63,190 nucleotides of DNA, filler included, from 10 parts of 10 records of this genome joined end to end with filler, not necessarily neighbours in it, one strand, 5' to 3'. Positions 2,492 through 53,731 are shown, counted from the whole stretch's first letter. Translations and numbers: made by a program. The notes: a model not told the origin generated them from the sequence alone.

Positions 2492-3379
2492 ATGGCGAGC
2501 ACCAGGGCGCTGTACCGGCTGCTCCGGAGGCAGGACGCTTCGGCGATGCCCGCCGACCTGTTCCTGCACGCGGCCGTCAACCAGAGGGTGCCGCTGGCCC
2601 GGGCCCTCGAGCCGCGCGCCCAGCTGCAGCTGCTCCGACGGGCATTCGCTGACAGCCGAGACCCGCCGCGCGACCTGGACACCGCAGTCCAGTGCGCGGG
2701 CTACTGCTCCAAGCGGGAGCAGGCCCTGCGCGGCTGCAGCGAGGCCCGGACTGCCTGGCCGTTGCTGGTGCTGGAGGACCCGGTGTTGCCCACAGAGACG
2801 GTAGAGTGGATATTTGTAGAGCCGCGGTACCTTCAAATGGCCCGGGAGGCTCTGGCCGGTACTAGGCGGTTTGTCTACTTAAGCAGCGCGGCATTCCGGC
2901 AGCTAGGCGGCCCAGGGCGGTCGGCGGTGGGCGTGCTGTGCTATATCATGAAGCACGAGCAGCGAGACTCGCGCGTGTTCGCCCAGTGCGTGGCCGGCCC
3001 CCCGACAGTGGTGCGTGGCGTCGAGGCTCGGCCGCTGGAGAGCCCGGTCGGGCCTGGGGAGGTCGCGGAGATGGCCTGGGCGAGCGTGCAGCCCTCGCCC
3101 GAGTTGGAGTGGCAAGAGCAACCGAATGCCGAGCAGGCCGCTCGGGCTGCCCTGTGCCGGCACGCACTGGCCCAGGCGGCCGAGAAGCAGGCGCCGACGG
3201 TGCGGGGCTGGGTGGCCCGATGCGGGGTCCCGCCAGGCGAGGTGGGCCCGTTCTCGTTTTGGCTGGCTGGGGCGTTGGCTCATCAGCAGCCGGCGGAGGT
3301 CAGGCAGAAGCTGCTCGACTGTGGAGTGACTGAGCGGTTGGAGCTGCTGCTGCCGACGCTCAAATCGGCAATAGCTTAG
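2492..3379 (+). CDS. Lon N-terminal substrate-binding (PUA-like) domain protein
   Basis: PLLVLEDPVLPTETVEWIFVEPRYLQMAREAL...VGVLCYI and the C-terminal FSFWLA...RQKLL...ERLELL match the LON_substr_bdg pattern. There is no ATPase or protease domain; in-frame introns are possible. Confidence 0.7.
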   Translation: MASTRALYRLLRRQDASAMPADLFLHAAVNQRVPLARALEPRAQLQLLRRAFADSRDPPRDLDTAVQCAGYCSKREQALRGCSEARTAWPLLVLEDPVLPTETVEWIFVEPRYLQMAREALAGTRRFVYLSSAAFRQLGGPGRSAVGVLCYIMKHEQRDSRVFAQCVAGPPTVVRGVEARPLESPVGPGEVAEMAWASVQPSPELEWQEQPNAEQAARAALCRHALAQAAEKQAPTVRGWVARCGVPPGEVGPFSFWLAGALAHQQPAEVRQKLLDCGVTERLELLLPTLKSAIA

Positions 3380-3733: not shown

Positions 3734-3833
3734 NNNNNNNNNNNNNNNNNNNNNNNNNNNNNNNNNNNNNNNNNNNNTTAATTAATTAANNNNNNNNNNN
3801 NNNNNNNNNNNNNNNNNNNNNNNNNNNNNNNNN
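3734..3833. other. Artificial contig spacer N44-TTAATTAATTAA-N44
   Basis: Identical 100-nt spacers also at 15829-15928, 23820-23919, 28518-28617, 31670-31769, 45247-45346, 50489-50588, 53732-53831 and 58869-58968. The 12-mer gives stops in all six frames. Confidence 0.98.
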
Positions 3834-3923
3834 GGGACAAGGGCCACTCCATCCTCGCTCAGTTAGACGCTCGCTCACGGCAACAACCCCATCCCGTTGG
3901 ATTTTTCTTCATTTCGTGGGGCG

Positions 3924-6900
3924 ATGGCCAGGCCTCGAACTGGGCTGGTGGTGGTGGTGGCGGTGGGGCTTTGGCTCTTGGCCACCAGCTCGGGCGACGG
4001 CGAGCAGGAGACGGTGGTTGCGCTCGACGGGTCGGCCGATCTCGGGGCCAACATGGCGGACGTGACCGCGCAGCTGCGGCATCGGCCCCAGCTGGCCCAG
4101 ATCCTGCCCCAGCTGCTGATCAGTCTGACCACCAACGCCGGGGGCGACCATGCCAGCGAGGTGCTCAAGCTGACCGACCAGATCCAGGCCAAGATGGTGC
4201 GCGAGTCGGCCGCCGCCGCCAAGGCGCACAAGAGGGAGGCGGCCAAGTGCTCGGCGGCGGTGGCGGCGGCGAACGGTCTTGAGCTAAAGTTCCGCAAGGA
4301 GCGACGGGAGGCCCGCAAGCGGCTGGGGCGGGTGGTGCGCGATCTGGGTCGGACCGGGCTGCAGGCCGGTCTGTCGAGGGAGCGGGTGGCGCATCTCGAG
4401 AGCCGGATCGCCCAGGTTGCCAAAGCCAGAGTGGACGGGCTGGCGACGGTCGAAGCCCGGGAGACGGCGCGGCACCGGGTGCTGCGGAACGTGGCCGATA
4501 AGATATCCTCAGCTTGCAACATGCCCGCGTACCGCGGCTGGCAGGGCTGCAGCCGGGAGGTGGCGGATGCGGTGCAGTCGATCAGGACCACGGATGGCGC
4601 GGTTGGGACGGCCGAGCCGGGGCAACAGTGCGCGCTGCCGTTCCGCAAGACGATCGACGGTGTCGAGCGCACATTCGAGGAGTGCACCACGGAAGGCGAC
4701 GGAAGGAGCGCACATTCGAGGAGTGCAACACGGAGGCCCTGGTGCTGCCTCGACGAGGAATGTAAGGGCAAGTGGGGAAGCTGCGCTCCGGTCACTCTCG
4801 ACCCAGCCCAGGTGCGCGCCGAGGCCCTCCGGGCCAAGAGCAGCTTGCCCGGCTTGCGGCAAGCGTTTGAGGACGAGCGGACTGCTGCCTTCTCGGCAGA
4901 CAAAGACCAGCTGTGGCAACTTGGCGAGTCTCGTGCGTGGACCAAACGGGCCGGCTGGCCGGTGGCCGAAGCTGGACTGGGCCGGGTGACGGTGCTGGCG
5001 GCGGCAGTGTTTGGGGCCGATGCAGTCAAAGGGCAGGCTGCACTGGAAAAGCTGCAGGAACTCAAGTCGGACGCGGCTGGTGAGAGCACGGCAGACCTCG
5101 CGGACTGGCTGTCGGCTGAGGACAAAATGCGGCGGCTGGAGCGGCAGCACGAGGCCGGGGTGGCGCAGGAGGCCAGGGTGCAGGCCCAGTTGGCCATCCG
5201 CGTGGCGCGGTTGGGCCTCGACCAGTCTGGGCACCGCGACGCCCTCGCACAAGTGCGGATACAGCACCGGAAGGCCAAGCGAGCAGCCGACCGGTCGCGG
5301 CTGCGCTGTTGGCGCAAGACGAGTGAGAACGAGCGGCGGATGAGCGCCAGCCGGGGCGACCTGAGCGTGCTCGACCGACTCAGGACACAGTTCCAGACTT
5401 CCCCTCCAAGTTGCCCGGGTGGATGCACCTCGGACGCCAACGGATTCTGCGCGCTCAAACTGGGCAGCGGGCAGCCGTACTGTGCCTGCCGGGCCGGTTA
5501 CTATGGACTCAAATGCGAGTTCCGCAAGTGCCCAGGCTTGGCGATCCCTCCGGAGCCAGCGTTGCAGCGGCTCTGGAAGGCCCCGCCTGAGACCACTTCG
5601 GCAGTGCTGTTTGAAGCGTCCGAGCCGGCGGCGTGCAGCGGACACGGCAGCTGTGACAAGACCAGTGGCCAGTGTACCAAATGTTTCGGCACGATGCAGC
5701 TCTGCAGGCACGCAAACGTGAAGCCTGGCGCCTCGGCTGTCCTTATAGCCGCCAGCAACCAGCCGACCGGCAAGATCACAGTAGATCGGGCATCCGCGCT
5801 GTGCAGGGAGAGCGAGCACTGCCTTGGATTCAGCTTTGCGAGCCCTGCAGGCTACTGGGATGCTACGGGTACCCTGCAGCCGTCTGTGCATAACAAAGCT
5901 TCGCATACGAGCCTTGTGGTGCTGTACGCGGCACTGGGACTCGAGGAGCTGGAGCCATCCGAGTTTGGCATGGATGTGTACCTGAAAACAGAGGGCAGCT
6001 GCCCAAACCTCCGGATGTCCCGCAAGGTCAACCAGAGGGCCGGCACCAAGGCAAGCAAGGTCCAAGGAATGAAGAACGGGGCAAGGCTCACCCTTGAGCG
6101 GGCTAAGGCCGAGTGCCTGAATAACCAGCTCTGTGGAGCTTTCAGCTTCCCTGGACAGCACGGCTTTGTGGACGCGGCTGGTAAGCGGCACATGTGGTTT
6201 GACCAACAGACGAGCAAGGCAGTTGTGGAATTCTATCACTTCCCCGATCCAAAGTCGCTCACACCGCCTGAGGATGGGATGGATCTGTACGTGCTGTCTG
6301 GTCCAGGGACTCTCTGGCTCCAGAATCAGCCGGATTGGATCAGTGAGACTCGCGAGCAGCGCGACCCAGCTGGCTACCTTGATAACAGCTGTGCATGGGA
6401 CTTTGAGGGTGGCGAACTGGGCGGCTGGACGGTGCCAACTGACCTGATGTGCACTGGGGCATTCTTCTCGCAGCCTGCAGCCAAGTCAATGTGTGATGCA
6501 AGCCAGCAGGGTGGTGCCGTCAAGCTTTCAAACATTGAGGTCAATGGCGCGAGTGCCAGTGGCTACACGCAGCTCGAAGGTGGGCTCAAGATAGGTTCGC
6601 AGCTGTTCACAGATAGGCCGTGGAAAATACGAACCGTGGAGGGACCAGAGGAGCAGACTGGCCAGCTGATGGGCCTAGCTGTGCTGAGGGTTCCAGATGC
6701 TGCCAAAGCGCAAGCTCAGACAATCAAATTCTCAGCTGGGATGCCTGTGCAAGTGGTGCTGCTGGTGGATGCCGGCTGGGAGTGGGCAGCTGACCCGAAT
6801 GCTGCATACCCGAGCTGGATGAATGGAAACTTTGAGCGCTGGGCTGACACCAAACTGGATGTCGACGATATCACTGTGTCCATCCACGGTCGGCGACCAA

Positions 6901-9900
6901 TGATACCTTTCATGGGCAACGCTGTCAGCACTGAGGTGGAGATTGGCCCAATTCCTGCTCAAAATCAACTGGCAGTGACTGCAATCGGCGCCTCATCGGG
7001 CCAGGCCATCCAAATCTTGCCTGGGGGTCTGCAAGCTGACGCTCAGCCGTTCACTGACGACACCTCGGTGCACATCGGTGAACTGGGACAAGACGTACTT
7101 GAGGAAGGGCTGCAAGGTGCTGTTCTTCTTCAAGCCCCTGTTGATGGGCGCCAGGAGGATGACATCTCTTTCACAGTGAGTGAGCGCGTGTATGTTTACG
7201 TACTGGTTGACAGCAAGGGGTTTGACGACGAAGCACGCCGAGTTCGGGCACCAGCATGGCTCGAATCCGAGGGGTTGCATGGCTACAGACGTCTGGATGG
7301 CGTCCAGATCCCAATTGATGGTGGAGCAGAAGGCAGACACTTTGCTGTGTTTCGGTCTACAACTCCACTTGCCGGGACCATCAGCCTTGGATCAGAGTGG
7401 TCGAGCAGGGTGGATGAGAGCCAGTTGCTCGGAGAGCCCAAGTCTTCGACTGGGCGCCCATGTGCTGTGCGCAGCCGTGGAGTGAATGTGGGGAAACATG
7501 TATTTGTGGACCAGCCATACACGTTCAGATCTGTTCCAAAACAACTCACTGGAGCCAATCTAGTCATGATCTCGGATGCAGACAAGATGGATGCGCATCA
7601 CACAGTGTCATTCCATTCATCTTCGCCAGTCGACGTTTACCTCGGCCTGGACCCCAGCATTGACAAGCCCCCACCTGGGTTCACCATGACTAGCATGACC
7701 CTCGACGTCGCTGGGCATCCTTCTGGTGGCCTCATACTCAAGGTGGCCAAGTCGCTGGTGCCAATGATGGGCGACGTGAAGATCTCTCAACTGCCTCAAC
7801 TTAACCCCTTCCGAGTTTCCAAGCTCGTCTCCAGTCTCCATGACCAGCCGCTGTCTCTTTCATCGATCAAGAAAGGTGGAACGCTCTATTCCGATTCTCG
7901 AGCTGTGCTAGAACAATTGCCAGAGTCCCTACATTTGGAGGGCCTGCCAGCAGTGGTCGCTACCAACGCAGCACGGGACCATGCACACCTGCTGTCATTC
8001 AACACTAACCAACCTTCAAAGCTTTATGTGCTGCTGGGGATTGGGGCTTCAGGTGTTGATGGTGGTGGATGGGAACTGGTCAGGCGCCTCGCCCCTGAGT
8101 TCAATGAGCTGAAAGACCATCTCAACGGTTCCTCAGTTTATGGAGAGGCGCCTCAACTGTCGTCGAGCAATGCTAGCTTCAGTGTCAAGTTCGACAACAG
8201 GGACTACAACCAGGTGATGATCTCCTCTGGCAACGAGTGGGCCATTCTCCGCCGTGGTGCGCTCGAAAGTGGAGACCACTCTGCAGTGGTGCAATCTTCA
8301 TGCAACGCTGTCCTCGAGACCAACAAGAAGGAAGCATTCGTCGTACAGTGCAGGGCTGGCAGCAAGCAAATGCTGTATAATGAGATGAGTCCCATGCCTG
8401 CTGGCACTAATGTGTTCATCCGCCAGCACGCAACCCATGGCAAGAGCAGCATTGCCTTGGAAGGTGTAGAATGGACATTCAACGCACAACTGGATGGGAA
8501 CAATGGCACGCTGCATGGCAAGATGCTACGAGGTCCTGGCAGATTGGTTGCACAGTCAGGCTATTTGGAAAGCAGTCCAACCAAGCACGACATCAGTGCC
8601 AAGACATTGGAAGTTTGGCTCAGACCAACAGATGTAGATCAGGACGAGGGCTCGGTGATTGCTCTGCACAGTCGTGATGGCAGCTTGGTGGACGCCATAT
8701 CAATCCGTGATCGAAGTTGGGTTATTACGAGTGCCCGAGATGTTCTGTCGAACCCTGTGCTGCAGGGCTCACAGGAGACACAGCCAAACCTTGTACATCT
8801 AGTGGCCACATTCGACGCAGATGGAACCAACACGCTGTATCGCAATGGGAAGGTGTACCGCGCTGCATACAAGCGCCACGACGCCCTCTCCCTTTTCGCC
8901 ACGGGTGCCAAGGTGATTGTTGGTGGCATATCGAGTCAGAAGTTCCAAAGTGTTGTATATCAGGCTACTCTTTACCATCGGGCACTGTCTTCCAACGAGG
9001 TGGTAAGCAACTTTAAGAAAGGGGTTCCCCAGCCCGGAGGTCCATTGCCCAGCTGGCTGGCTGCCCAATTTCAGCCTGCTCTTGGGCCAGATGGTGCCGA
9101 TCTCACTGTAAGGACCGGCAGCACTGTGTATCGGATCCTGGAGTCAAAGAGGCTTCACTCAGGCAAATTCTCGCTGATGGTGCCAAGGCTTACTGTAGCT
9201 TCGCTCCAGAGTCGAGTGCGTGCTCTGACTGAGCGAGCCAGTCACAACCAAGCAGAGCTTTGGAAGCTCAAAGAGGACGAGCAGTTGGCAAATATCAACG
9301 TGACATCTCGGGTTCGAGAGCTCGGTACTGCACAGAACAAGTCCACAGCTCTGCGCAAGGCATTAAAGTCTCGGATGGAACAATTCGCAGTGGCTGCAGG
9401 TACCGCTGTTCGAGTACAAGCAGCGATCCAGCAGGCTAAAGATAGTGCGTTGATTGCCTCTGCATTCAAGGACTTCGCCCAAACACAACTGGAAAATATT
9501 GCGACCGTGCAAGATTCCCATAAGGCTCTGCGCGCAGCTCAGGGGCACTTAAAGCAGTTCCAGCTCGGGTCAATCGATTCAGGGGCAGTTGTAGGCTTAT
9601 TTGGACCTTCTGCCAACTCACGCCGCCTCCAGGCTAGTAGTCCAGAGTCAGCCATCCGTCAGGTTGCAGAGAGCAAGGTCGCTTATAAAATGGCCATGGA
9701 TAAAGCTCAGAGTGGTGCTGCTGTGTTCCGCGAATGGGCCCATACCAAAGCGAATTCAGTTGACAGCCAGAAGGTGGCACTGCAAGACAAATATGCAAAG
9801 GCAAAGACAAAACTGGAAAAAGGCACAGCACAACTGGCAAGATCTATCCAAATGTTTCAATCTGCCGCAGGGCTTCTGGCCAAAGCAAGGAACAAGGTGG

Positions 9901-12900
9901 ACAAGGCCAACTATCAAGCAAAGTTCACCTCAGGAATGGCTGCTGTTGCTGCCGAGAGCGAACTTGGGGAGGCCCTCGAAGGCAGGGCTGCCTCGGCAGC
10001 AACTGCACGCTCTGAAGCAATAGCCGCAGCCAGCACTACGCTGCGCCTCGCGCTCGAGAGTGCTAGCCGAAAGCTCGACAGAACGCGCGAAAAGCACCAG
10101 CGCAGGCTTCTTGGCATGCTCAGGGCGCATGGAAAGATAGGCAGGGTTAGAGTGAGCACTGCAATGCTTCAGTCGTCCTTGAAACAGTTGGCAAAGACGA
10201 AAGAGCTCATCACCCAGGTTGTCAAGGCATCTGATCAGGATCTGGGAGAAGCCTCAGATGCCGATATGGCGACTGCCCAAGAGCACTTGCAGGAGTCGAA
10301 CAGTATCGTCAAGCAGTCCAAGGACGCACTGCAGGCTGTCCTTGGCCTGCAAATCAAAAGTTCAGCCCAACTGCGCGACGCCAAGGCGAGGCAAATGCAG
10401 GCCCAGTCAACCTTTAAGCAGTTCCAAGGGGTAGCAAACCAGGTCTGGACAGCCCATCTACAACGAGAAGGTCGTTTATATGAGCTCCAAGGTAAGGTGA
10501 GCGAGACCAAGCACCGAGTAGCACTTCTTAATAAGCACAAGGCGCAGGCCACAGGGCAGCACATACAGCACCTGACAAGTATTGCACAGCCAGTGGTAGC
10601 CTTACGACCAATTCTTGGGGCTGGGTTGGTGACCATGGCTGTGCCAGCTATTCCATCGCAGATTATAGCGCTGAAGCCAACTATGGTGAACACGGTGGTG
10701 TTGGTCAAACCAGTGGCTTGTGACGAGACAACAATGCAGGGCAGCTACTTCCTGCGAAGTGACTTCTCTGCGGCTGCAGAAGCGCATGGGCACTCTCCAA
10801 AGGGAGTGATCGAGAGTCCAGCATTTGTTGTGGGAAGCGGTGCTAGTCTGTCATTCAAGGTTGCAGGGGGCAGTCATCAGTGGAGCGGGGGCAATCAAGT
10901 TGCGATGGTTGGATGCAACTCACATGCACACGCTGGCATCACGGCAGTGTCGCTCGAAAAGCTCTATGCAGGCTCCTGGGTTCGAATCATGTCTGCATCT
11001 GGGGAGGACAGCTCGAGTTTCAGGCAGGTCGACTGGGACCTGAATGCATACAGTGGGGATACGCTCCGGCTGCGAGCTTATGACCTGGCCCATGGCGCAT
11101 GGGGTTACATTGCACTAGACGACGTGAAGATTGAGGGTTGTCGGGCTGCAGAAAGCGGTGAAGGAGTGATTAAGCTTGACAACCCAGCTACAAGCACGCT
11201 CGATGGAAACGGCACTCGCTCGGGTGGAAAGGCTTACACAGTGCAGTCGAACAACATGCAGCTTGTGTACAATATGCTGGCGGATCATCATGTCGACAGG
11301 GTCCGAATTCTCGCAGGTGATGATGAGAATCTGGAGATCAATGTAGCATGGTCTGATCATGTTGCTGGCCCATGGAACGCCATCGAGCCACCAGACTTAG
11401 CGATCAACAAGGGCGCCTGGGGGACTTTTGACACATTCAGCGTGCAAAGAGCGCAATTCTGGCGGGTGCAAGCACAAGGACCAAGTACAGCACAGGTGAT
11501 CTCGTTGCGTGAAGTCGAGTTCCATGGCAAATCCGGCCAGTTAGCCTCCCCGGTAGACAGTTACATAAGGTACCCAGCAAAGGAGCTTACAGGGACACCG
11601 ATCTGGCAGCAGGAGACCACACTGGAGCGCTGTGCTGCCCTGTGCAACGCGCAGGCCAACTGCAAGTCTTTCAACTACCATTCTGAATGTACCCTCAACT
11701 CTGCTGACCAAATCTCAGCACCTGGAAATTTGATAGACTCAGAGCAAGAGTATTTCGAGAAGGCTGCCAGCAGGTGGCAGTCTGGCAAACTCCAAGCCTG
11801 CGAGAGGCATTTGTGTCCGTTGGATGGCAAGTGCAGCGGGCGGGGCAAATGTGACACAAAGACAGGTCGGTGCAACTGCAATCAGAACTCCTATGGTGAC
11901 CACTGCCAGTTCCTCAAATGCCCCGGCGAAAAACGAGTAGTTCTGAGGAAGTCGAACCCAGAAGTGTGCAATGGGATGGGCCGCTGTAACCGGCGGACTG
12001 GCAAGTGCCGCTGTGTTGAAGGCCGAAGTGGACCTGGCTGCAACCACCGCAAATGTCCAGGTGGATGCACACGAGCATCACAGGGTACCTGCCACCCCGA
12101 CGGCACCTGCACCTGCAAAGCAGGATACCACGGTAAATCGTGCAGCCGGAGGTCATGTCCTGAGGACTGCAATGGCAAGGGTCAATGCGACTCTAATACT
12201 GGCAAGTGTGTCTGCCAGCCAGGATACAGTGGCGCTGAATGCGCGGCGGACAAGCCATGCCAGTCTCTAGTGATGAACTGGTGGGATTCCTTCAATGTGC
12301 GAGGCTGGTCCACTTGTCCTCAGTCGTCACTCCTAACTGGACTCTATATAGACAGCCAACCGTGCCATGGACTGTACTGCATTGAGATGGCCCGTTGCTC
12401 GGTGCCTTGTGCAGGCGCCAAGCAGAGGAATATAGGCAGCTGTTATGTGGCTGACTGGACAACTTCGATGTCAGAAGAAGGTTGGTCCAAGTGCGACACA
12501 AACTATTTTCTGCAGGGATTTTACAGGGAAGCCTGCCACTCGCTCTACTGCTTAGAGAGGGCCAAGTGCTGTCAAGTTGACAAGGCTGAATGGAACGACT
12601 GTGAGCATATCAATTGGGGTGGCGCTTTCAGCCGTGAAGGCTGGGCGCACACCAGTGGCACCGGGTTCCTCACAGGAATGTTTAGGACTGGTTCCAAGTC
12701 TGACTCAGGTAATGGAATCAACCAGATACAGCGGGCCTCGCAATGCCACTTCAGACAGCGCCCACGGCAAGTTGTCTGTGGGGACGGGCTTCGAGAGGAT
12801 AAGGAAAGTTGTGACGATGGGAATGGGCAGGATGGAGATGGTTGCTCGAGTGAGTGTACTGTGGAGCATGGCTGGCGCTGTCGGGATCTGGACATTCCGT

Positions 12901-15828
12901 TGGAGGTATCTGGGGCACAGTCCTCGACAGGAAATGCTGTCAAGCTGATTGGTGGAGGGCTTGGAGCTGGCAAAAAGTACTACACTGACCAGGCATTTAC
13001 CATCAAGGCCACTCCAGTTCTCGGAGGAGCGACTACAATCGCGACTGCAGATGCCGACAAGACCGCTGACTGGACACTGCAGTTTACTGTAAACCAATTA
13101 GTGCATCTTTGGGTCCTTGTAGACAGCGCTACTCTAGCAGCCAATAAGGGCACGCCTGCCTGGCTCAAGGGCACATTCAAGCGAACATCGCATGAGATTC
13201 CAGTCACAGGGCGTGGCCAGGCTGCCAAGTTTGTGGTGTTCCAGTCCAAGCACCAACACAAGGGCGATATCAGCATTGGTCCAGCACCAGCGCAGACCCA
13301 GTCTGGGGCCAACCACATTGTGGCTATCACCCGGGCTGCGTGTGACCCAGTAGTGCCATACCGGAAGGGCTCGGCCAAGCTAATGAATAAGATGCGATAC
13401 ACCGAGCTCGAGGACCAGCTGCGGCAAGGGAAGGCTGTGTGTGGCGAGGGATACCACGTATGCAACTTCCAAGAAGTGACCATTCATGGAGTGATTCACA
13501 GAGAAACTCTGGCAGGCGGAAGAGGCTGGATTGTAGGTGGATTTCCCAACTCTGATAGCAACCGGCGGGCCATCTGGAGTGGCCAAGACAGCACCCAGTG
13601 CCGACAGTCTCAAGCGCCTCGCTGGTGGGGCAAGTGGGGACCATATACTGGTCGAGTGCACTGCACGAATAAGAACCACAGGGACCGAGTGGCGTGCTGC
13701 TCAGATGCCCCCGCCCGAGTAGAGGCAGCGGTTAGATTGCAATATCCCAAAGTGCCGTACACGAGCCTCAAGGCGATGTTGGACCGTGACTGGCAGCATG
13801 GCAATTGTGGGACTGGCTGGCATGTGTGTAATTACGCAGAGGCCTCTATCTACGGCGCCATGCTGGGTCACACATTCAAGGGTGAGCAGCATGCTTGGAT
13901 TGTAGGGGGCGTGGGCACCTCCGAGAAGCCAAGCCGGTCTGTGTGGAACGACCAGTCCTCGGGCTTTTGCCGATCAGGCCGCTATCCAGCCTGGTGGTCG
14001 AAGTTTGAGAACTATCATGGAGCGGTGCATTGCTTTGACGGATCCTCAGTCCAGTTCCCTACTGCTTGCTGCAAGGACAGGAGACAGCTGCCTGCGAGTA
14101 GGCACGCTCATTTGGTCAAGAAGGTAGGCCGGCTGCGGTACAATGAGTTGGAGCATCTGCTCAACAAAGACTGGAAGGGCGCTCGAGCCTGTGGACCAGA
14201 CTGGCATGTGTGCAATTACCAGGAGGCGGTTGCCTATGGCAGCTACATGCACGCGAGCTTGGGCGAGTCAGCTTGGCTGGTGGGTGGATTCTCCAACTGG
14301 GCTCCTCACAGACGTTCTCTTTGGAATGGCCAAGACTCGACCCAATGTGATCACAAGAGGGCCCCGCTATGGCACGCTGGCAAGTGGGGGCCATACTTTG
14401 GCCAAGTTCGCTGCGGGTTGGCCAGCGATAAAGCGCCAGTGGCCTGTTGCCGGAATGCCGGGTTTCCAAGTAAGAGCATTGGGGAGAGCAACATTGCCAA
14501 ATATGCACAAGTCACCACTTCAAGTACACTACGAGCTGATGGGGCTGAAAAATTGGTAGACGGCGAGACCGAATTCAGTGCTGAGGGTAGCTGGTCCGTC
14601 TCGCAGCCAGTGGGCCAGTATGCTGTGTTCGACTTTGGTGCGCCTGTGGAGATTGTAAACATCATAGTCTACAACCACCACGACATCAGTGGCACAGATG
14701 TCAAGAGCCTTACTGTGCAAACCTCGAACGATGGAGTTGCTTGGCAAACTCTCAAAGCAGACCTGCCGCTGTTAGACAGTGGTGGCAGCTCGCCTAATCC
14801 AGGGCAGCCACTGTACCTGCTCGAGACAGCCAGGTTTTGGCGGGTTGAAATCACAGCCGTGTTCGATTCGACCCAGGGCAGTAGCGGACTATCAGAAGTG
14901 CAGCTATTACAGCAAGGCAGAAGCACCGCGCTCGACTTGTTTGCAAAACATTCGGGGCATGGGTTGCTACCGGAAGTATACTCAACTTTGACTGAGCAAG
15001 GCCCACTGCAGTGCAGCGATCACTGTGCAATAGATGCCACTTGCAAGGCATTCAATTATAAGGCCTCAAGCCGCGAGTGTGGCCTGGCTGCTAAGAACCG
15101 AAACGGCGGTGCTGGCTATGCTGCAAATGCTGAGTATGACTACTATGAGAAGATAGTGGACGTGCATAGTTCTGGGTACTGCGAGTTTGATATGAGTGAC
15201 TACCGGGGTATGGAGAGTGTGACCAAATCAGGCACGAGCTGCCAGCGGTGGACTGTGCAGCTGCCTCATCGACACAGCTTCACTCCGGAGCGCTACCCTG
15301 GGCGTGGACTTGGAGAACACAACTATTGTCGCAATCCAAACCAGGATCCGAAGGGTGCCTGGTGTTACACCACCTCGACGACAAACCGGCAGGAGTATTG
15401 TGAAATTGCCAGGGATACCGAATGCCCAGTGACGTACTCGGCCAATATCAAGGGGAATGGAGGCAACGGGAAGCGGACCCCTGAGCTACAGATACACTCA
15501 GAGACTGGTGGGGTCAATGCACGACTCGAATCTCGCCACTGCAGTACGCCACATGAGGTTTACCTGGAGTTGCGTACCCAGAGGCACAGTCAAAGTTGGG
15601 GGATAGGCATGAACGATGACCTCAACCTGTGGATATGCTATGGTCGCTTGGGCACAATGAACAAAGATAAGTGTGCATTGCGAATAGAGCCATCAGGTAC
15701 GGTCCACATCCTAGGATACTCGGCATTTATGGCCAACACCCAACTTTTGGCACGCGAGGAACTTGCTGAAGCACAGACAGAGCCACTCCTGATGCTGCAG
15801 GAGACATGCACAGTGACAGTGTGTGGCT
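3924..15828 (+). CDS. Giant secreted mosaic protein (>3960 aa, 3' truncated): coiled coils, FN2-like, tenascin-type EGF, PAN/apple, LamG, F5/8 discoidin, Myxococcus Cys-rich repeat, kringle and unnamed repeats
   Basis: Single stop-free frame. Signal peptide MARPRTGLVVVVAVGLWLLATSSG; CALPF..TFEECT..RPWC (FN2); CSGHGSC and CNGKGQCD (EGF); TLEVWLRP..HLVATFD..LYRNG (LamG); CGDG..ESCDDGN..DGDGCS (Cys-rich repeat); YRG..CQRW..NYCRNP..WCYT (kringle). Confidence 0.9.
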
Positions 15829-15928
15829 NNNNNNNNNNNNNNNNNNNNNNNNNNNNNNNNNNNNNNNNNNNNTTAATTAATTAANNNNNNNNNNNNNNNN
15901 NNNNNNNNNNNNNNNNNNNNNNNNNNNN

Positions 15929-23819: not shown

Positions 23820-23919
23820 NNNNNNNNNNNNNNNNNNNNNNNNNNNNNNNNNNNNNNNNNNNNTTAATTAATTAANNNNNNNNNNNNNNNNNNNNNNNNN
23901 NNNNNNNNNNNNNNNNNNN

Positions 23920-50488: not shown

Positions 50489-50588
50489 NNNNNNNNNNNN
50501 NNNNNNNNNNNNNNNNNNNNNNNNNNNNNNNNTTAATTAATTAANNNNNNNNNNNNNNNNNNNNNNNNNNNNNNNNNNNNNNNNNNNN

Positions 50589-53500
50589 TTGTTTAACAAT
50601 GAATGGTTTCTTGGGAGCGACTTGGTCGACATTCTTAATTGTCGGGAGAGTGGTTGGGAGATTTGCAGCTGCCTTGAGATCAGGTGTGCCTTTCTTTGTA
50701 ATGTGATTCGAGGCACTGCCTTCCATTGTAATGCCTTTCGAATCGCCGTTGTATCTCGTGGTATTATCCATGGTATATCCATCGTTGATGATAGCATCTT
50801 GCGCCTTCTTCGTTCGCTTTGATACATAAGTGGAAGCACTCAGCTTCATGGCGGTTTTCGATTTGGTTTGGATCTTTTCTGCCGATGAGAAATCACGCCA
50901 TGGATCAAATTCTGACTGAAACGGGATTCCGAGCACAGCAAGCTGTATGGCGAGCTCACGGAGTTGCCGTTCGCTGGAGCCAGCATCAGCATTGTTGACA
51001 GAAAGCAGATTGACATCGCGTTTATCCTTCAGAATCGACGAGGCTAGCTTCTTAAGGGTGTGCCGAGGCCCAAGCTCCACAAATGTCCGAGCGCCATCAT
51101 CATACATTTGTTTTATTTGTGCGTCGAAGTGTACCGAACTTGTCATGTGCTGGGAGAGAGTCGCAAGGACAGGTGCAGATGTCGAATATGGAGCAGCTGA
51201 TGTGTTGCTGTACACCTGTGGTCCGTCTCCCAGAAGAGCGTCGCCAATCTGAGTCTCGAGGTGCTTTGCAAATGCGTCAGCTGCTGGTTGCATGAGAGGG
51301 GTATGAAACGCATCGCTGACCTTGAGTGGGACCACCCGAAGTCCCCTGCTTGTCAGGACCTTGCTGAAGCTGTGCACTGCTGCTGTGGTTCCAGAAATCA
51401 CAACCTGGGAAGGACTGTTGTGGTTAGCCATCCAGACATCTGTGGGGAAGTCTCCAATTTGGTCTACAGAAGCACCAAGCACTGCTGCCATGGCACCGCC
51501 ACTGGCGTGCTTCTCCATCAGCATACCACGCTGACAGGTGATGTTGAATACTTGATTGTGGTCCAGGAAGGTATTGGCATATAGAGCAGCAATCTCCCCA
51601 AGGCTATGGCCGGCGACAAAATCAGGCACAACCCCAGCAGCCTTGAAAATGTCAAAGCATCCAACAGAGCAGGCCACTGTGGTGAGTTGTGCTAGCTTGG
51701 TATTATTGAGCTGTGTTGCATCAACGGTTTTCTCATCTTCGCTGTGATATTTTTCGCGAGGATATAGCACTTGAGATGGCTGGAACCCATGCTTAGCTGC
51801 AGCTCTGTCCATAGCAGTGAGAGCCTCGCGGAATGCAGGCCAATTCATGGCACACTCGTCAAACATGTTCTTGTACTGTGAACCCTGACCAGAGAAGAGG
51901 AAGGCAAGCTTGCCCTGAGCACTGCGTTGGCGGAAGATCACGCCGTCGGACTCCCAGCTGTCCTTTTGGGGCTCAGCCTGCAGGAGAGCAATGCAGTGTT
52001 CAAGAGCAGAAACGCACTGTTCAGCACTTGTGGCAAGAAATCCTAGACGTGGACCCTCAGCAATCGGGGCTGACAGAGAAAAGGCTTGGCAGAACTCCTC
52101 GAACCCCAAGAGAACAGACTTTGCTTGCTGCTGACAAAGTCCTACAAGTGCAGGGACGTCAGATGCAGACATCACCACTGGAACAGGTAGTGCATGGACA
52201 CGGTATGCCTCTGCATGCTCTGCTTCGTATTCCTCGACAACACAATGATAGTTTGCTCCACCAAAGCCAAATGAGCTGACAGCAGCCATTCTCGGCAGAT
52301 GAGCGCCATCTGAGCCCACGGGTGTAATCCATGGGCGATTGCTAGTGTTGAGATATAGCGGTGAGTCTTGGATGCTAGAGCCATCCCGTAGAACTGGCGG
52401 CGTACTCACATGGATTGTCTGAGGCAGGATCTTGTGCTTGAGAGCAAAGATGACCTTTAGTAACCCAGCACAGCCCGCCACAGCCTTCAAGTGGCCAATG
52501 TTGCTCTTGATGCTTCCTACGGCAACGCGTTCATGGCCAACTCCTTGGAACGCATTCTTGAGAGCTGTCAACTCGATGGCATCCCCAACAGGTGTCCCGG
52601 TGCCATGGCCTTCCACCAATGTGATGGATGAAGGATCCACGCCGGCTCTTGCCCAGGCCCGCCGAATCGCTTGCTCTTGTCCCTCGATCGTTGGTGCATA
52701 GATGCCAGGGGCTCGCCCATCGCTAGATGAAGCACAGCCACGAATCACAGCATGTATCTTGTCGCCATCAGCCTCAGCATCTGCAAGCTTTTTAAGAACA
52801 AACATGACACTGCCTTCACCAATGAGCATGCCACCAGTGTCTTTATCGTATGCTGACACGTTCTGCTTGGTGCTGAATACAGGCGTCTTGGAAAAAGCCA
52901 TAAACATTCCAATACTGCAGTCTGTGCATGTTGCACCAGCAATCATTGTACGGCAGTCTCCATCAAGCAGCTCATTGATAGCGACTTTGATTGCCACGAG
53001 CGAACTGGCACATGCAGCATCCACGACACAATTCATACCATCCAGGTTGAAGACATTTGTGATGCGGCCTGCAGTAACATTCCCTAAGAACCCGGGGAAA
53101 GAGTCAAGCCTCCATTCTGGGAAGTGGGCTTTGTACTTGTCCACAGCCTTTTCGACGTCTGCCTCAGGCATACCCATCTTGCGCAGAACTTTGTCGACCA
53201 CCACGTAATTCAAGCGGGAGTAGAACTCGTTTGAAGACTTTTGGCCACCACCAATGCCCAAAACACAGCCGATATTATGTTTGGTTTTGCCATCAGTAGG
53301 AATACCAGCATCAGTGAGAGCCTCCTTGACCTTCACCAGACTCAAAGTCTGATTCACATCCATGTCTTCAACTTGCAGCATGTTTACATTGAACACTCTT
53401 GGATCGAAATCGAAGGGATCGATAAAACCGCCTCGTGTGCAGTATATCTTGTCTGGCACACGCTTGTCTGGATCAAAGTAGGCTGTCACATCGACACGGT

Positions 53501-53731
53501 CGTCTGGAAGGTCACTGATAGAATCCAAGCCATCACGAATCATCTCCCATGACTCTTTGATTGTACCGCCACCAGGGAGGGCGCAAGAATAACCTATAAT
53601 AGCGATTCGGTTGTCTTGCTCCGGGGGGGGATCCGCAAACCTTGGAAGAGAATTGGCAGAGGGAGATGGAACATGCTGGGCTTGAGGGCCTGAAGCAGTA
53701 GTGGGCTGGCTGGGCTGGATGCTCGGAGCAG
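50589..53731 (-). CDS. pfaA: PUFA synthase (PfaA/OrfA-type iterative PKS) fragment: KS + malonyl-CoA acyltransferase; truncated at both ends
   Basis: RIAIIG, DKIYCTRGGFI, FPEWRLDSFPGFLGNVTAGR, VVDAACASS, EGHGTGTPVGD, KSNIGHLK, SFGFGGANYH (KS); FSGQGSQY, GHSLGE, AFHT (MAT). Closely recalls thraustochytrid OrfA. Confidence 0.92.

Follow-up and report, generated by a model that had tools for sequence, protein, structure and literature searches.

Nested domain insertion and a possible two-way stalk in a giant, putatively secreted mosaic protein

How deeply can domains be inserted into one another within a single protein chain? The question is raised by a giant gene found in a 63,190-nucleotide stretch of DNA (the window), in which the two halves of one beta domain, several copies of a second one and a run of short hydrophobic strands are arranged as if each domain sat in a loop of the previous one. 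An original prediction, made from the sequence alone, counted six to seven such levels. According to our in silico analysis of the encoded protein, P0001, two levels of nesting are demonstrated by homology: a host domain contains a block of 1,408 residues, and a repeat copy within this block contains a LamG-bearing block of its own. A depth of five to six levels is plausible, whereas the higher count included an EGF level that our data contradict. For our overall explanation, in which domains of a secreted mosaic protein are inserted into one another at several levels, we put the probability at about 0.6.

The window consists of contigs joined by spacers (44 N, TTAATTAATTAA and again 44 N, with a stop in all frames), located at 3734-3833, 15829-15928, 23820-23919 and six further sites, so that genes lying on either side of a spacer are unlinked. 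P0001 is encoded by a single open reading frame (ORF) at nt 3897-15884 (3,995 codons; plus strand, as for all features below unless marked otherwise), within the contig spanning nt 3834-15828, and its residues are numbered from nt 3897. The coding region of the mosaic protein itself extends over nt 3924-15828, where it is cut by the end of the contig and the spacer. Since the ORF continues into the N-spacer, the 3' end of the gene is missing and the protein is at least 3,995 residues long. A signal-peptide-like stretch follows Met10, and a Pfam scan detected EGF-type modules, PAN, Laminin_G_3, F5/8 type C and Kringle domains. On the remaining contigs lie genes for typical eukaryotic proteins (BING4CT/WD40, a type I polyketide synthase, a papain-family protease), and fragments of P0001 orthologues were found in metagenome assemblies and in one EukProt transcriptome. 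Based on the mosaic of domains, the eukaryotic proteins of the other contigs and the sources of these fragments, we read P0001 as a secreted mosaic protein of the adhesion or matrix type from a marine microbial eukaryote.

A host domain divided by 1,408 residues

The outer level is a putatively sugar-binding, jelly-roll-type domain of about 175 residues that is broken after its first 35 residues or so (the host domain). Its N-terminal piece, which starts with WDFEGGELGGW, is located at nt 6396-6491 (residues 834-865) and its C-terminal piece at nt 10722-11138 (residues 2276-2414). Between them lie two cysteines separated by the 1,408 residues of the insert, Cys866 (nt 6492-6494) and Cys2275 (nt 10719-10721), at the positions given in the original prediction. 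Cys866 aligns with the first cysteine of a C-x13-C loop in the insert-free homologue P0155 described below, and Cys2275 was placed from the sequence and from the alignments with orthologue fragments and with P0155.

We compared residues 2225-2420 with 1.84 billion representative sequences using phmmer (E<=1e-3). This search recovered 278 library relatives of the C-terminal half. Apart from two groups of orthologue fragments, they are mostly bacterial and carry the domain in one piece. In the contiguous homologues, the motif WDFE-[ST]-G-x-L-x-GW stands about 40-55 residues upstream of the part that matches the C-terminal half, and the same WDFE motif is present at residues 834-844 of P0001. A hidden Markov model (HMM) of 176 nodes, built from 24 contiguous homologues, matched P0001 at two places and nowhere else. 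The two matches abut on the profile: residues 834-870 correspond to positions 1-40 (11.8 bits) and residues 2272-2414 to positions 36-170 (124.8 bits). In a six-frame control covering the window, the N-terminal piece had an independent E-value (iE) of 0.009, the next best match being at 0.29. Once the insert was excised in silico, the rejoined halves gave a single match over positions 1-170 with 158.0 bits, which is more than the sum of the separate pieces (130.5 + 19.1).

At the level of sequence, the clearest evidence for the split is a natural homologue without the insert, the 446-residue metagenome protein P0155. It is collinear with residues 602-885 of P0001 (35% identity, E 3e-56), a part that comprises two PAN-like modules and the N-terminal half of the host domain, and its alignment resumes directly at residues 2275-2375 (44% identity, E 7e-23). 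The bracketing cysteines are 13 residues apart in P0155 (C-NQTNSNNQTNYTQ-C) versus 1,408 in P0001. As had been proposed, a module with a DFE-G-W beginning and a WG-I-LD end is thus divided by a block lying between two cysteines: its halves match adjoining parts of one profile, they give a full-length match when rejoined, and they are continuous in P0155. We are close to certain that the host domain is split by the 1,408-residue insert.

The suggested relationship of this module to GH32 proteins was also borne out, since Glyco_hydro_32N and/or Glyco_hydro_32C domains were found at E<=1e-10 in 10 of the 25 host-domain homologues that were scanned. An earlier set of 22 homologues contained LamG_3 in 8 proteins and PEP-CTERM in 11. 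The rejoined host halves match the profile of this GH32/PEP-CTERM-associated beta domain from end to end, and share with the family the motifs WDFE-G-L-GW, G-[IV]-[IL]-E-[ST], GGG-H and R-[LI]-R-x-YD...WG-x-I-x-x-D. Family members are contiguous (24/24 aligned) and most relatives are bacterial, whereas the host domain of P0001 belongs to a eukaryote-type mosaic and has an extra pair of cysteines and a giant insert.

In three bacterial GH32 proteins (P0029, P0046, and P0074), the host-type domain is preceded by the N-terminal part of Glyco_hydro_32N and followed by Glyco_hydro_32C; in P0029, for example, it occupies residues 442-546, with the GH32N stretch at 45-299 and GH32C at 661-807. This placement makes the host-type domain, in its turn, an insert of GH32 catalytic modules.

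No Pfam model matches either half of the host domain. The nearest curated model, NCBIfam NF038128 (choice-of-anchor J), remains below its cut-off (19.1 versus 30 bits); with the C-terminal half alone, it is matched at E 1.2e-3 over profile positions 58-162 of 162. Sequence searches of the PDB with the C-terminal half and with the host-family profile gave no significant match, and a word-based search for homologues of the region 826-2420 at near lengths found none.

Sandwich repeats within the insert

The insert opens with copies of a beta repeat. Self-BLAST of 150-residue slices linked copies 1-3 (residues 880-1300) to a further copy, copy 5 (residues 3002-3141), with E values from 1e-4 to 1.5e-8. 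An HMM built from copies 1, 2, 3, and 5 placed them at residues 875-1021, 1023-1175, 1170-1317, and 2997-3133, respectively, and gave an additional partial match (positions 45-90) at residues 1336-1381, which corresponds to the N-terminal part of copy 4. Together, the two methods recover the five copies of the original prediction, in which the repeat measured about 110 residues; this length does not hold, as the unit spans 145-155 residues. Using self-BLAST, the repeat HMM and the alignment of the copies, we delimited copy 1 at nt 6495-6968 (residues 867-1024), copy 2 at nt 6969-7421 (1025-1175) and copy 3 at nt 7422-7808 (1176-1304). The intact copy 5 lies at nt 12879-13346 (2995-3150) and is flanked by Cys2995 and Cys3149.

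We then modelled copy 5 with AlphaFold2, using a four-row alignment of P0001's own copies, and obtained a beta-sandwich with a predicted local distance difference test score (pLDDT) of 78.1 and a predicted template modelling score (pTM) of 0.75. The tail NHIVAIT forms the last strand of this model (residues 146-152). Foldseek related it to the C-terminal accessory domain of 6HPD, a GH2 beta-glucuronidase (E 4.8e-6), and VIA-align superposed residues 7-154 of the model on residues 848-990 of 6HPD (Z 15.7, root-mean-square deviation 2.5 A, 137 aligned residues, 20% identity). The model also superposes on the corresponding domain of the GH138 structure 6HZF_A (Z 9.9), while unrelated rows have a Z of 5.3 or below. 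Because the range aligned with 6HPD spans the first and the last strands, both are part of the fold. By its modelled fold, found for copy 5, the repeat would be an accessory beta-sandwich resembling carbohydrate-binding modules. Unlike 6HPD and the GH138 structures (6HZE, 6HZF), P0001 would carry this sandwich five times in a non-enzyme protein, with four copies devoid of their last strand in cis.

Sequence searches did not extend this family. Copies 1-3 and 5 have no match in Pfam, and the repeat profile has no significant one in a PDB sequence search. Word-based homologue searches found none for copy 5 against longer proteins, nor for copies 1-3 at near lengths. Two scans of metagenome contigs detected no relative, and in the Atlas copy 5 falls only into unnamed bacterial or eukaryotic clusters.

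The missing strand is seen when the copies are aligned. Copy 5 reads ISIGP...NHIVAITRAAC and is intact, as predicted; copies 1-3 end at the ISIG-like strand and its loop, and the next copy starts at once, in agreement with the predicted stop. At the end of copy 1, VEIGPIPAQNQ stands opposite ISIGPAPAQTQ of copy 5, which then continues SGANHIVAITRAAC, whereas copy 1 goes directly into LAVTAIGASSG. We considered LAVTAIG as a candidate for the last strand of copy 1 and rejected it, since this element (h-x-V-x-G...SS-x-G) is likewise found at the start of copies 1 and 5, neither of which is preceded by a repeat. LAVTAIG thus belongs to the next copy as its first strand, and the 2/3 and 3/4 junctions are built in the same way. 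Copies 1-4 are all without the last strand that copy 5 has.

Copy 4 is in addition interrupted. Its similarity to the other copies breaks after LYVLLGIGASG and resumes at PLPSWLAAQF...KFSLMVPRL, 322 residues further on. The N-terminal part is located at nt 7809-8066 (residues 1305-1390; HMM positions 44-90, 17.5 bits as a piece) and the C-terminal part at nt 9033-9194 (1713-1766). The block between them, at nt 8067-9032 (1391-1712), consists of a module of about 160 residues followed by LamG_3 (PF13385) at nt 8556-9002 (1554-1702), which scores 38.8 bits against a cut-off of 27.6 and covers profile positions 4-150 of 151. Rejoining the two parts of copy 4 produced one match over HMM positions 44-141 with 26.9 bits, versus 17.5 and 5.9 bits for the pieces. 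When the N-terminal part was joined to random 54-residue pieces of P0001 instead, this score was reached by none of 200 constructs (mean 16.4, maximum 22.4). The division of copy 4 by a LamG-containing insert, anticipated in the original prediction, thus withstands this control, and we consider a split by a block of about 322 residues very probable on the basis of these profile scores. The module that precedes LamG (nt 8049-8561, residues 1385-1555) has no Pfam match, and the Atlas gave a weak fibrinogen-C/COLFI-like lead for it (score 0.92, low recognition).

Returning strands and the out-and-back model

Copy 4 is followed by the innermost element of the insert, a helical region at nt 9195-10544 (residues 1767-2216) with low proline and glycine content and a heptad-like periodicity. 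These 450 residues between copy 4 and the first late strand are predicted as helical by DSSP on the AlphaFold2 model (pLDDT mostly 55-74, with breaks near residues 1890-1915 and 2019-2024), in line with the coiled coil of about 450 residues that had been proposed at this place. The region probably forms an antiparallel hairpin.

Four hydrophobic strands (L1 to L4) then appear with a period of 10-12 residues at nt 10587-10715 (residues 2231-2273), exactly where they had been reported, in the sequence QPVVALRP-ILGA-GLVTMAVP-AIPS-QIIALKP-TMV-NTVVLVKP-VAC. L4 and the cysteine that follows it (NTVVLVKPVAC) resemble the tail of copy 5 (NHIVAITRAAC), and the pattern N.[IV]V.[IV]...AC occurs in the 3,995 residues of P0001 only at residue 2265 (L4) and residue 3139 (copy 5 tail). 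In the same way, Cys2995 and Cys3149 bracket copy 5 as Cys866 and Cys2275 bracket copy 1 together with L4. A wider motif matches only L1, L3, L4, and the copy 5 tail, and four matches were obtained in 0 of 2,000 shuffles.

Orthologue fragments show that this segment is conserved. In an alignment of six rows, which hold 3 distinct sequences, invariant positions make up 20 of the 45 late-strand columns, 68 of the 140 columns of the folded C-terminal half and 7 of the 33 columns of the helix before the strands. Fragments of two other taxa (54% and 46% identity) preserve the succession of helix, four strands, cysteine, C-terminal half, discoidin-like module and PAN. By our own estimate, 44 residues in extended conformation have approximately the length of four repeat domains. 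That the late strands complete copies 4, 3, 2, and 1, in this reverse order, is plausible: it agrees with their number and with the chain geometry, L4 is similar to the end of copy 5, and orthologue fragments conserve the strands. We lean slightly towards this assignment.

In the corresponding model, a disulfide between Cys866 and Cys2275 would close the base of the insert, and the 450-residue helical region would fold back on itself. The chain would return through the four strands of 10-12 residues, each of them serving as the final beta-strand of copies 4, 3, 2, and 1 in turn; these proposed closing strands come about 1,000-1,400 residues after their repeats. The repeats would then be nested in one another's last hairpin loop and build a rigid two-way stalk, for which we estimate a length of about 15 nm in its beta modules and up to about 30 nm more in the helical hairpin. 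The stalk would keep the LamG-bearing module and the helical tip at a distance from the host domain. We judge the odds to be even for this complete "Russian doll" of five to six levels, made of a disulfide-stapled jelly-roll loop, four nested homologous sandwiches, a helical-hairpin core and a LamG side branch in copy 4. The out-and-back arrangement is plausible and is the best available reading of the sequence.

Several observations count against the explanation as a whole or fail to support it. The N-terminal half of the host domain scores weakly when taken alone (11.8 bits, six-frame iE 0.009). The wider strand motif was written after the strands had been seen, so that its shuffling statistic overstates the significance, and L2 (GLVTMAVP) fits it less well than the other strands. 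In the copy 5 model, the last strand has a pLDDT of only about 60, the lowest of the domain. An AlphaFold2 model of residues 1168-2280 (1,113 residues, from copy 3 through L4, with a four-row alignment) reached a mean pLDDT of 47.9, with only the helices usable. Under the proposed strand order, L1 and L2 would be expected to pair in this construct and L3 and L4 to remain free; all the late strands appear in it as coil with a pLDDT of about 30, and they give no structural support to strand completion, although this model is too poor to say anything either way. A prediction of the complex between copy 1 (residues 866-1024) and L3-L4 (residues 2249-2280), made without alignments or controls, had an interaction prediction score from aligned errors (ipSAE) of 0.03 in both runs and likewise weighs neither way. 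Finally, no full-length orthologue showing whether the numbers of repeats and strands co-vary was recovered in the homologue and metagenome scans.

One alternative is a large insertion of an ordinary kind, without strand completion. Copies 1-4 would be tandem sandwiches able to do without one strand, and the late hydrophobic, Pro-punctuated segments would do no more than lead the chain back to the host domain, either as a conserved extended linker or as a separate small sheet or clasp. The split of the host domain and the tandem copies hold good under this explanation too. It fits with the fact that no model put the late strands on the repeats, with the deviation of L2 from the motif and with the low confidence of the copy 5 terminal strand. 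However, it does not lead one to expect that the returning strands equal the truncated copies in number, four in each case, nor that L4 and its cysteine mirror the end of copy 5 in a pattern that P0001 contains at just two places. The alignment with the solved relative 6HPD runs through the last strand, the 44 extended residues span about four domains according to our estimate, and a floppy linker is not expected to be as conserved as a folded domain. We hold a plain insertion to be possible, though somewhat doubtful.

Another explanation is that the 12-kb contig is chimeric or retains non-coding sequence, the insert being outside any one mature protein. The window is indeed a series of short contigs with N-spacers between them, the gene lacks its 3' end, and contigs from RNA libraries reach only some parts of the insert, several inner ones among them. 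On the other hand, the frame is uninterrupted over 3,995 codons in DNA with a guanine plus cytosine content of 52-67%, and the junction from helix to strands, cysteine and C-terminal half is kept in two other taxa. Short contigs from two public DNA runs also cross both junctions with 95-99% identity: record 6 of run X2 spans the N-terminal one (nt 6300-6610) and record 4 of run X1 the C-terminal one (nt 10516-10861), one of these two runs being possibly the source of the window itself. The public runs cover at most 0.20 of the stretch, the uncovered parts being uninformative, and no contig that skips the insert was found among the public-run contigs aligned to it. A joint from 8081 to 8178 in run X3 was disregarded, as one of its sides has 26 letters and it involves replaced letters. 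An assembly artefact appears very improbable.

It is equally hard to believe that residues 2231-2273 are a membrane-embedded hairpin and not beta strands: their composition is hydrophobic (ILGAGLVTMAVPAIP, QIIAL, VVLV), but Lys, Arg and Pro return at intervals of 10-12 residues, the flanks on either side are of the extracellular, Cys-rich type and belong to one domain whose halves must meet, and the strands resemble that of a soluble domain, copy 5.

Flanking modules and comparison with known systems

The outermost shell of the original prediction, an EGF repeat opening near nt 5630 and closing near nt 11800, does not withstand analysis. The EGF-like module at nt 5571-5702 (residues 559-602) has six local cysteines with the pattern C-x35-C-SGHGS-C-x6-C-TK-C-x6-C. 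The EGF_2 model covers it over profile positions 7-22 only (residues 579-594); in self-BLAST, the module aligns with the complete EGFs at residues 2640-2704 and parallels the complete one at residues 2672-2704. The EGF_2 domain at nt 11814-11906 (residues 2640-2670) matches positions 1-32 of 32 with 30.1 bits. Both EGFs are whole locally, and since neither leaves a half to be completed, a split EGF enclosing the whole region was rejected and an additional outer level of this kind is highly unlikely.

Two PAN/apple-like modules lie at nt 5700-6296 (residues 602-800), in the part that is collinear with P0155, and form an internal repeat (residues 588-696 versus 697-799, self-BLAST E 4e-9). Between the EGF array and copy 5, at nt 12270-12790 (about residues 2792-2965), we observed three similar Cys-containing units of the form W-x-x-x-[FM]-x-x-x-G-W-S/A ... 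L-x-G-[LFM]-[YF] ... C, which may resemble dermatopontin-type repeats. Three Cys-rich repeats of about 120 residues (C-G-x-G-[WY]-H-V-C-N ... C-C) occupy nt 13332-14460 (residues 3146-3521); they share 36-47% identity with one another (E down to 9e-29) and had no match in the Pfam scan of the whole protein. Three long antisense ORFs overlap the giant gene on the minus strand (3875-5458, 4509-6239, and 10235-10708); we take them for shadow frames caused by the high GC content of the coding sequence, because it is the plus frame that has homologues. On another contig of the window, nt 50541-53543 (minus strand) encode a fragment of a type I polyketide synthase with the N- and C-terminal ketoacyl synthase domains and an acyltransferase.

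Domain insertion is common in proteins, with inserts that usually consist of one domain and are one or two levels deep. In RrgA, the pneumococcal pilus adhesin, D3 is inserted into D2 and D2/D3 into D1, and the parent domain re-forms from its halves; like P0001, it is a secreted adhesin-type protein with beta-sandwiches built from the segments that flank an insert, nested more than one level deep (PMC5333627). RrgA differs by having three levels of unrelated domains with isopeptide locks. P0001 has a 1,408-residue insert, maybe four homologous repeats in series, a probable helical-hairpin core and a proposed lock by a pair of cysteines, and there is no sequence relationship between the two proteins. 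In the integrin beta subunit, the hybrid domain harbours the betaA domain as an insert, so that the chain crosses a beta-sandwich "rod" domain twice, out to the insert and back from it, as proposed here (PMC12383024). The integrin beta head has one or two levels only, and its folds are unrelated to those of P0001.

The integrin hybrid domain is itself inserted in the PSI domain. Other out-and-back stalks pair N- and C-terminal segments, as in domains D0-D3 of flagellin, the coiled-coil hairpin inserted in the ABC head of SMC/Rad50 and the streptococcal antigen AgI/II. These stalks are helical or polyproline-based, and to our knowledge none of them uses serial homologous beta-sandwiches that are each closed by a returning strand. 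We also know of no solved protein with a covalently continuous two-way stalk of this type, and a narrow full-text literature search, without supplements, found no description of serially nested homologous sandwiches.

Nested insertion is thus already known, and what P0001 would add, as judged from its sequence, is a very large insert with a natural insert-free counterpart. The same loop has 13 residues in P0155 and 1,408 in P0001, a pair that illustrates how much extension a small beta domain tolerates. The region also marks two widespread domains that are without a Pfam model, namely the GH32/PEP-CTERM-associated domain, with its 278 library relatives, and the 6HPD-like sandwich. Should the late strands indeed complete the repeats, the region would be a demanding test for domain parsers, HMM annotation and structure predictors, all of which recover it here only piecemeal. 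P0001 would then also reveal a new route by which sandwich modules can build a long and stiff extracellular stalk, and tandem repeats could arise or persist nested in one another and not as beads on a string.

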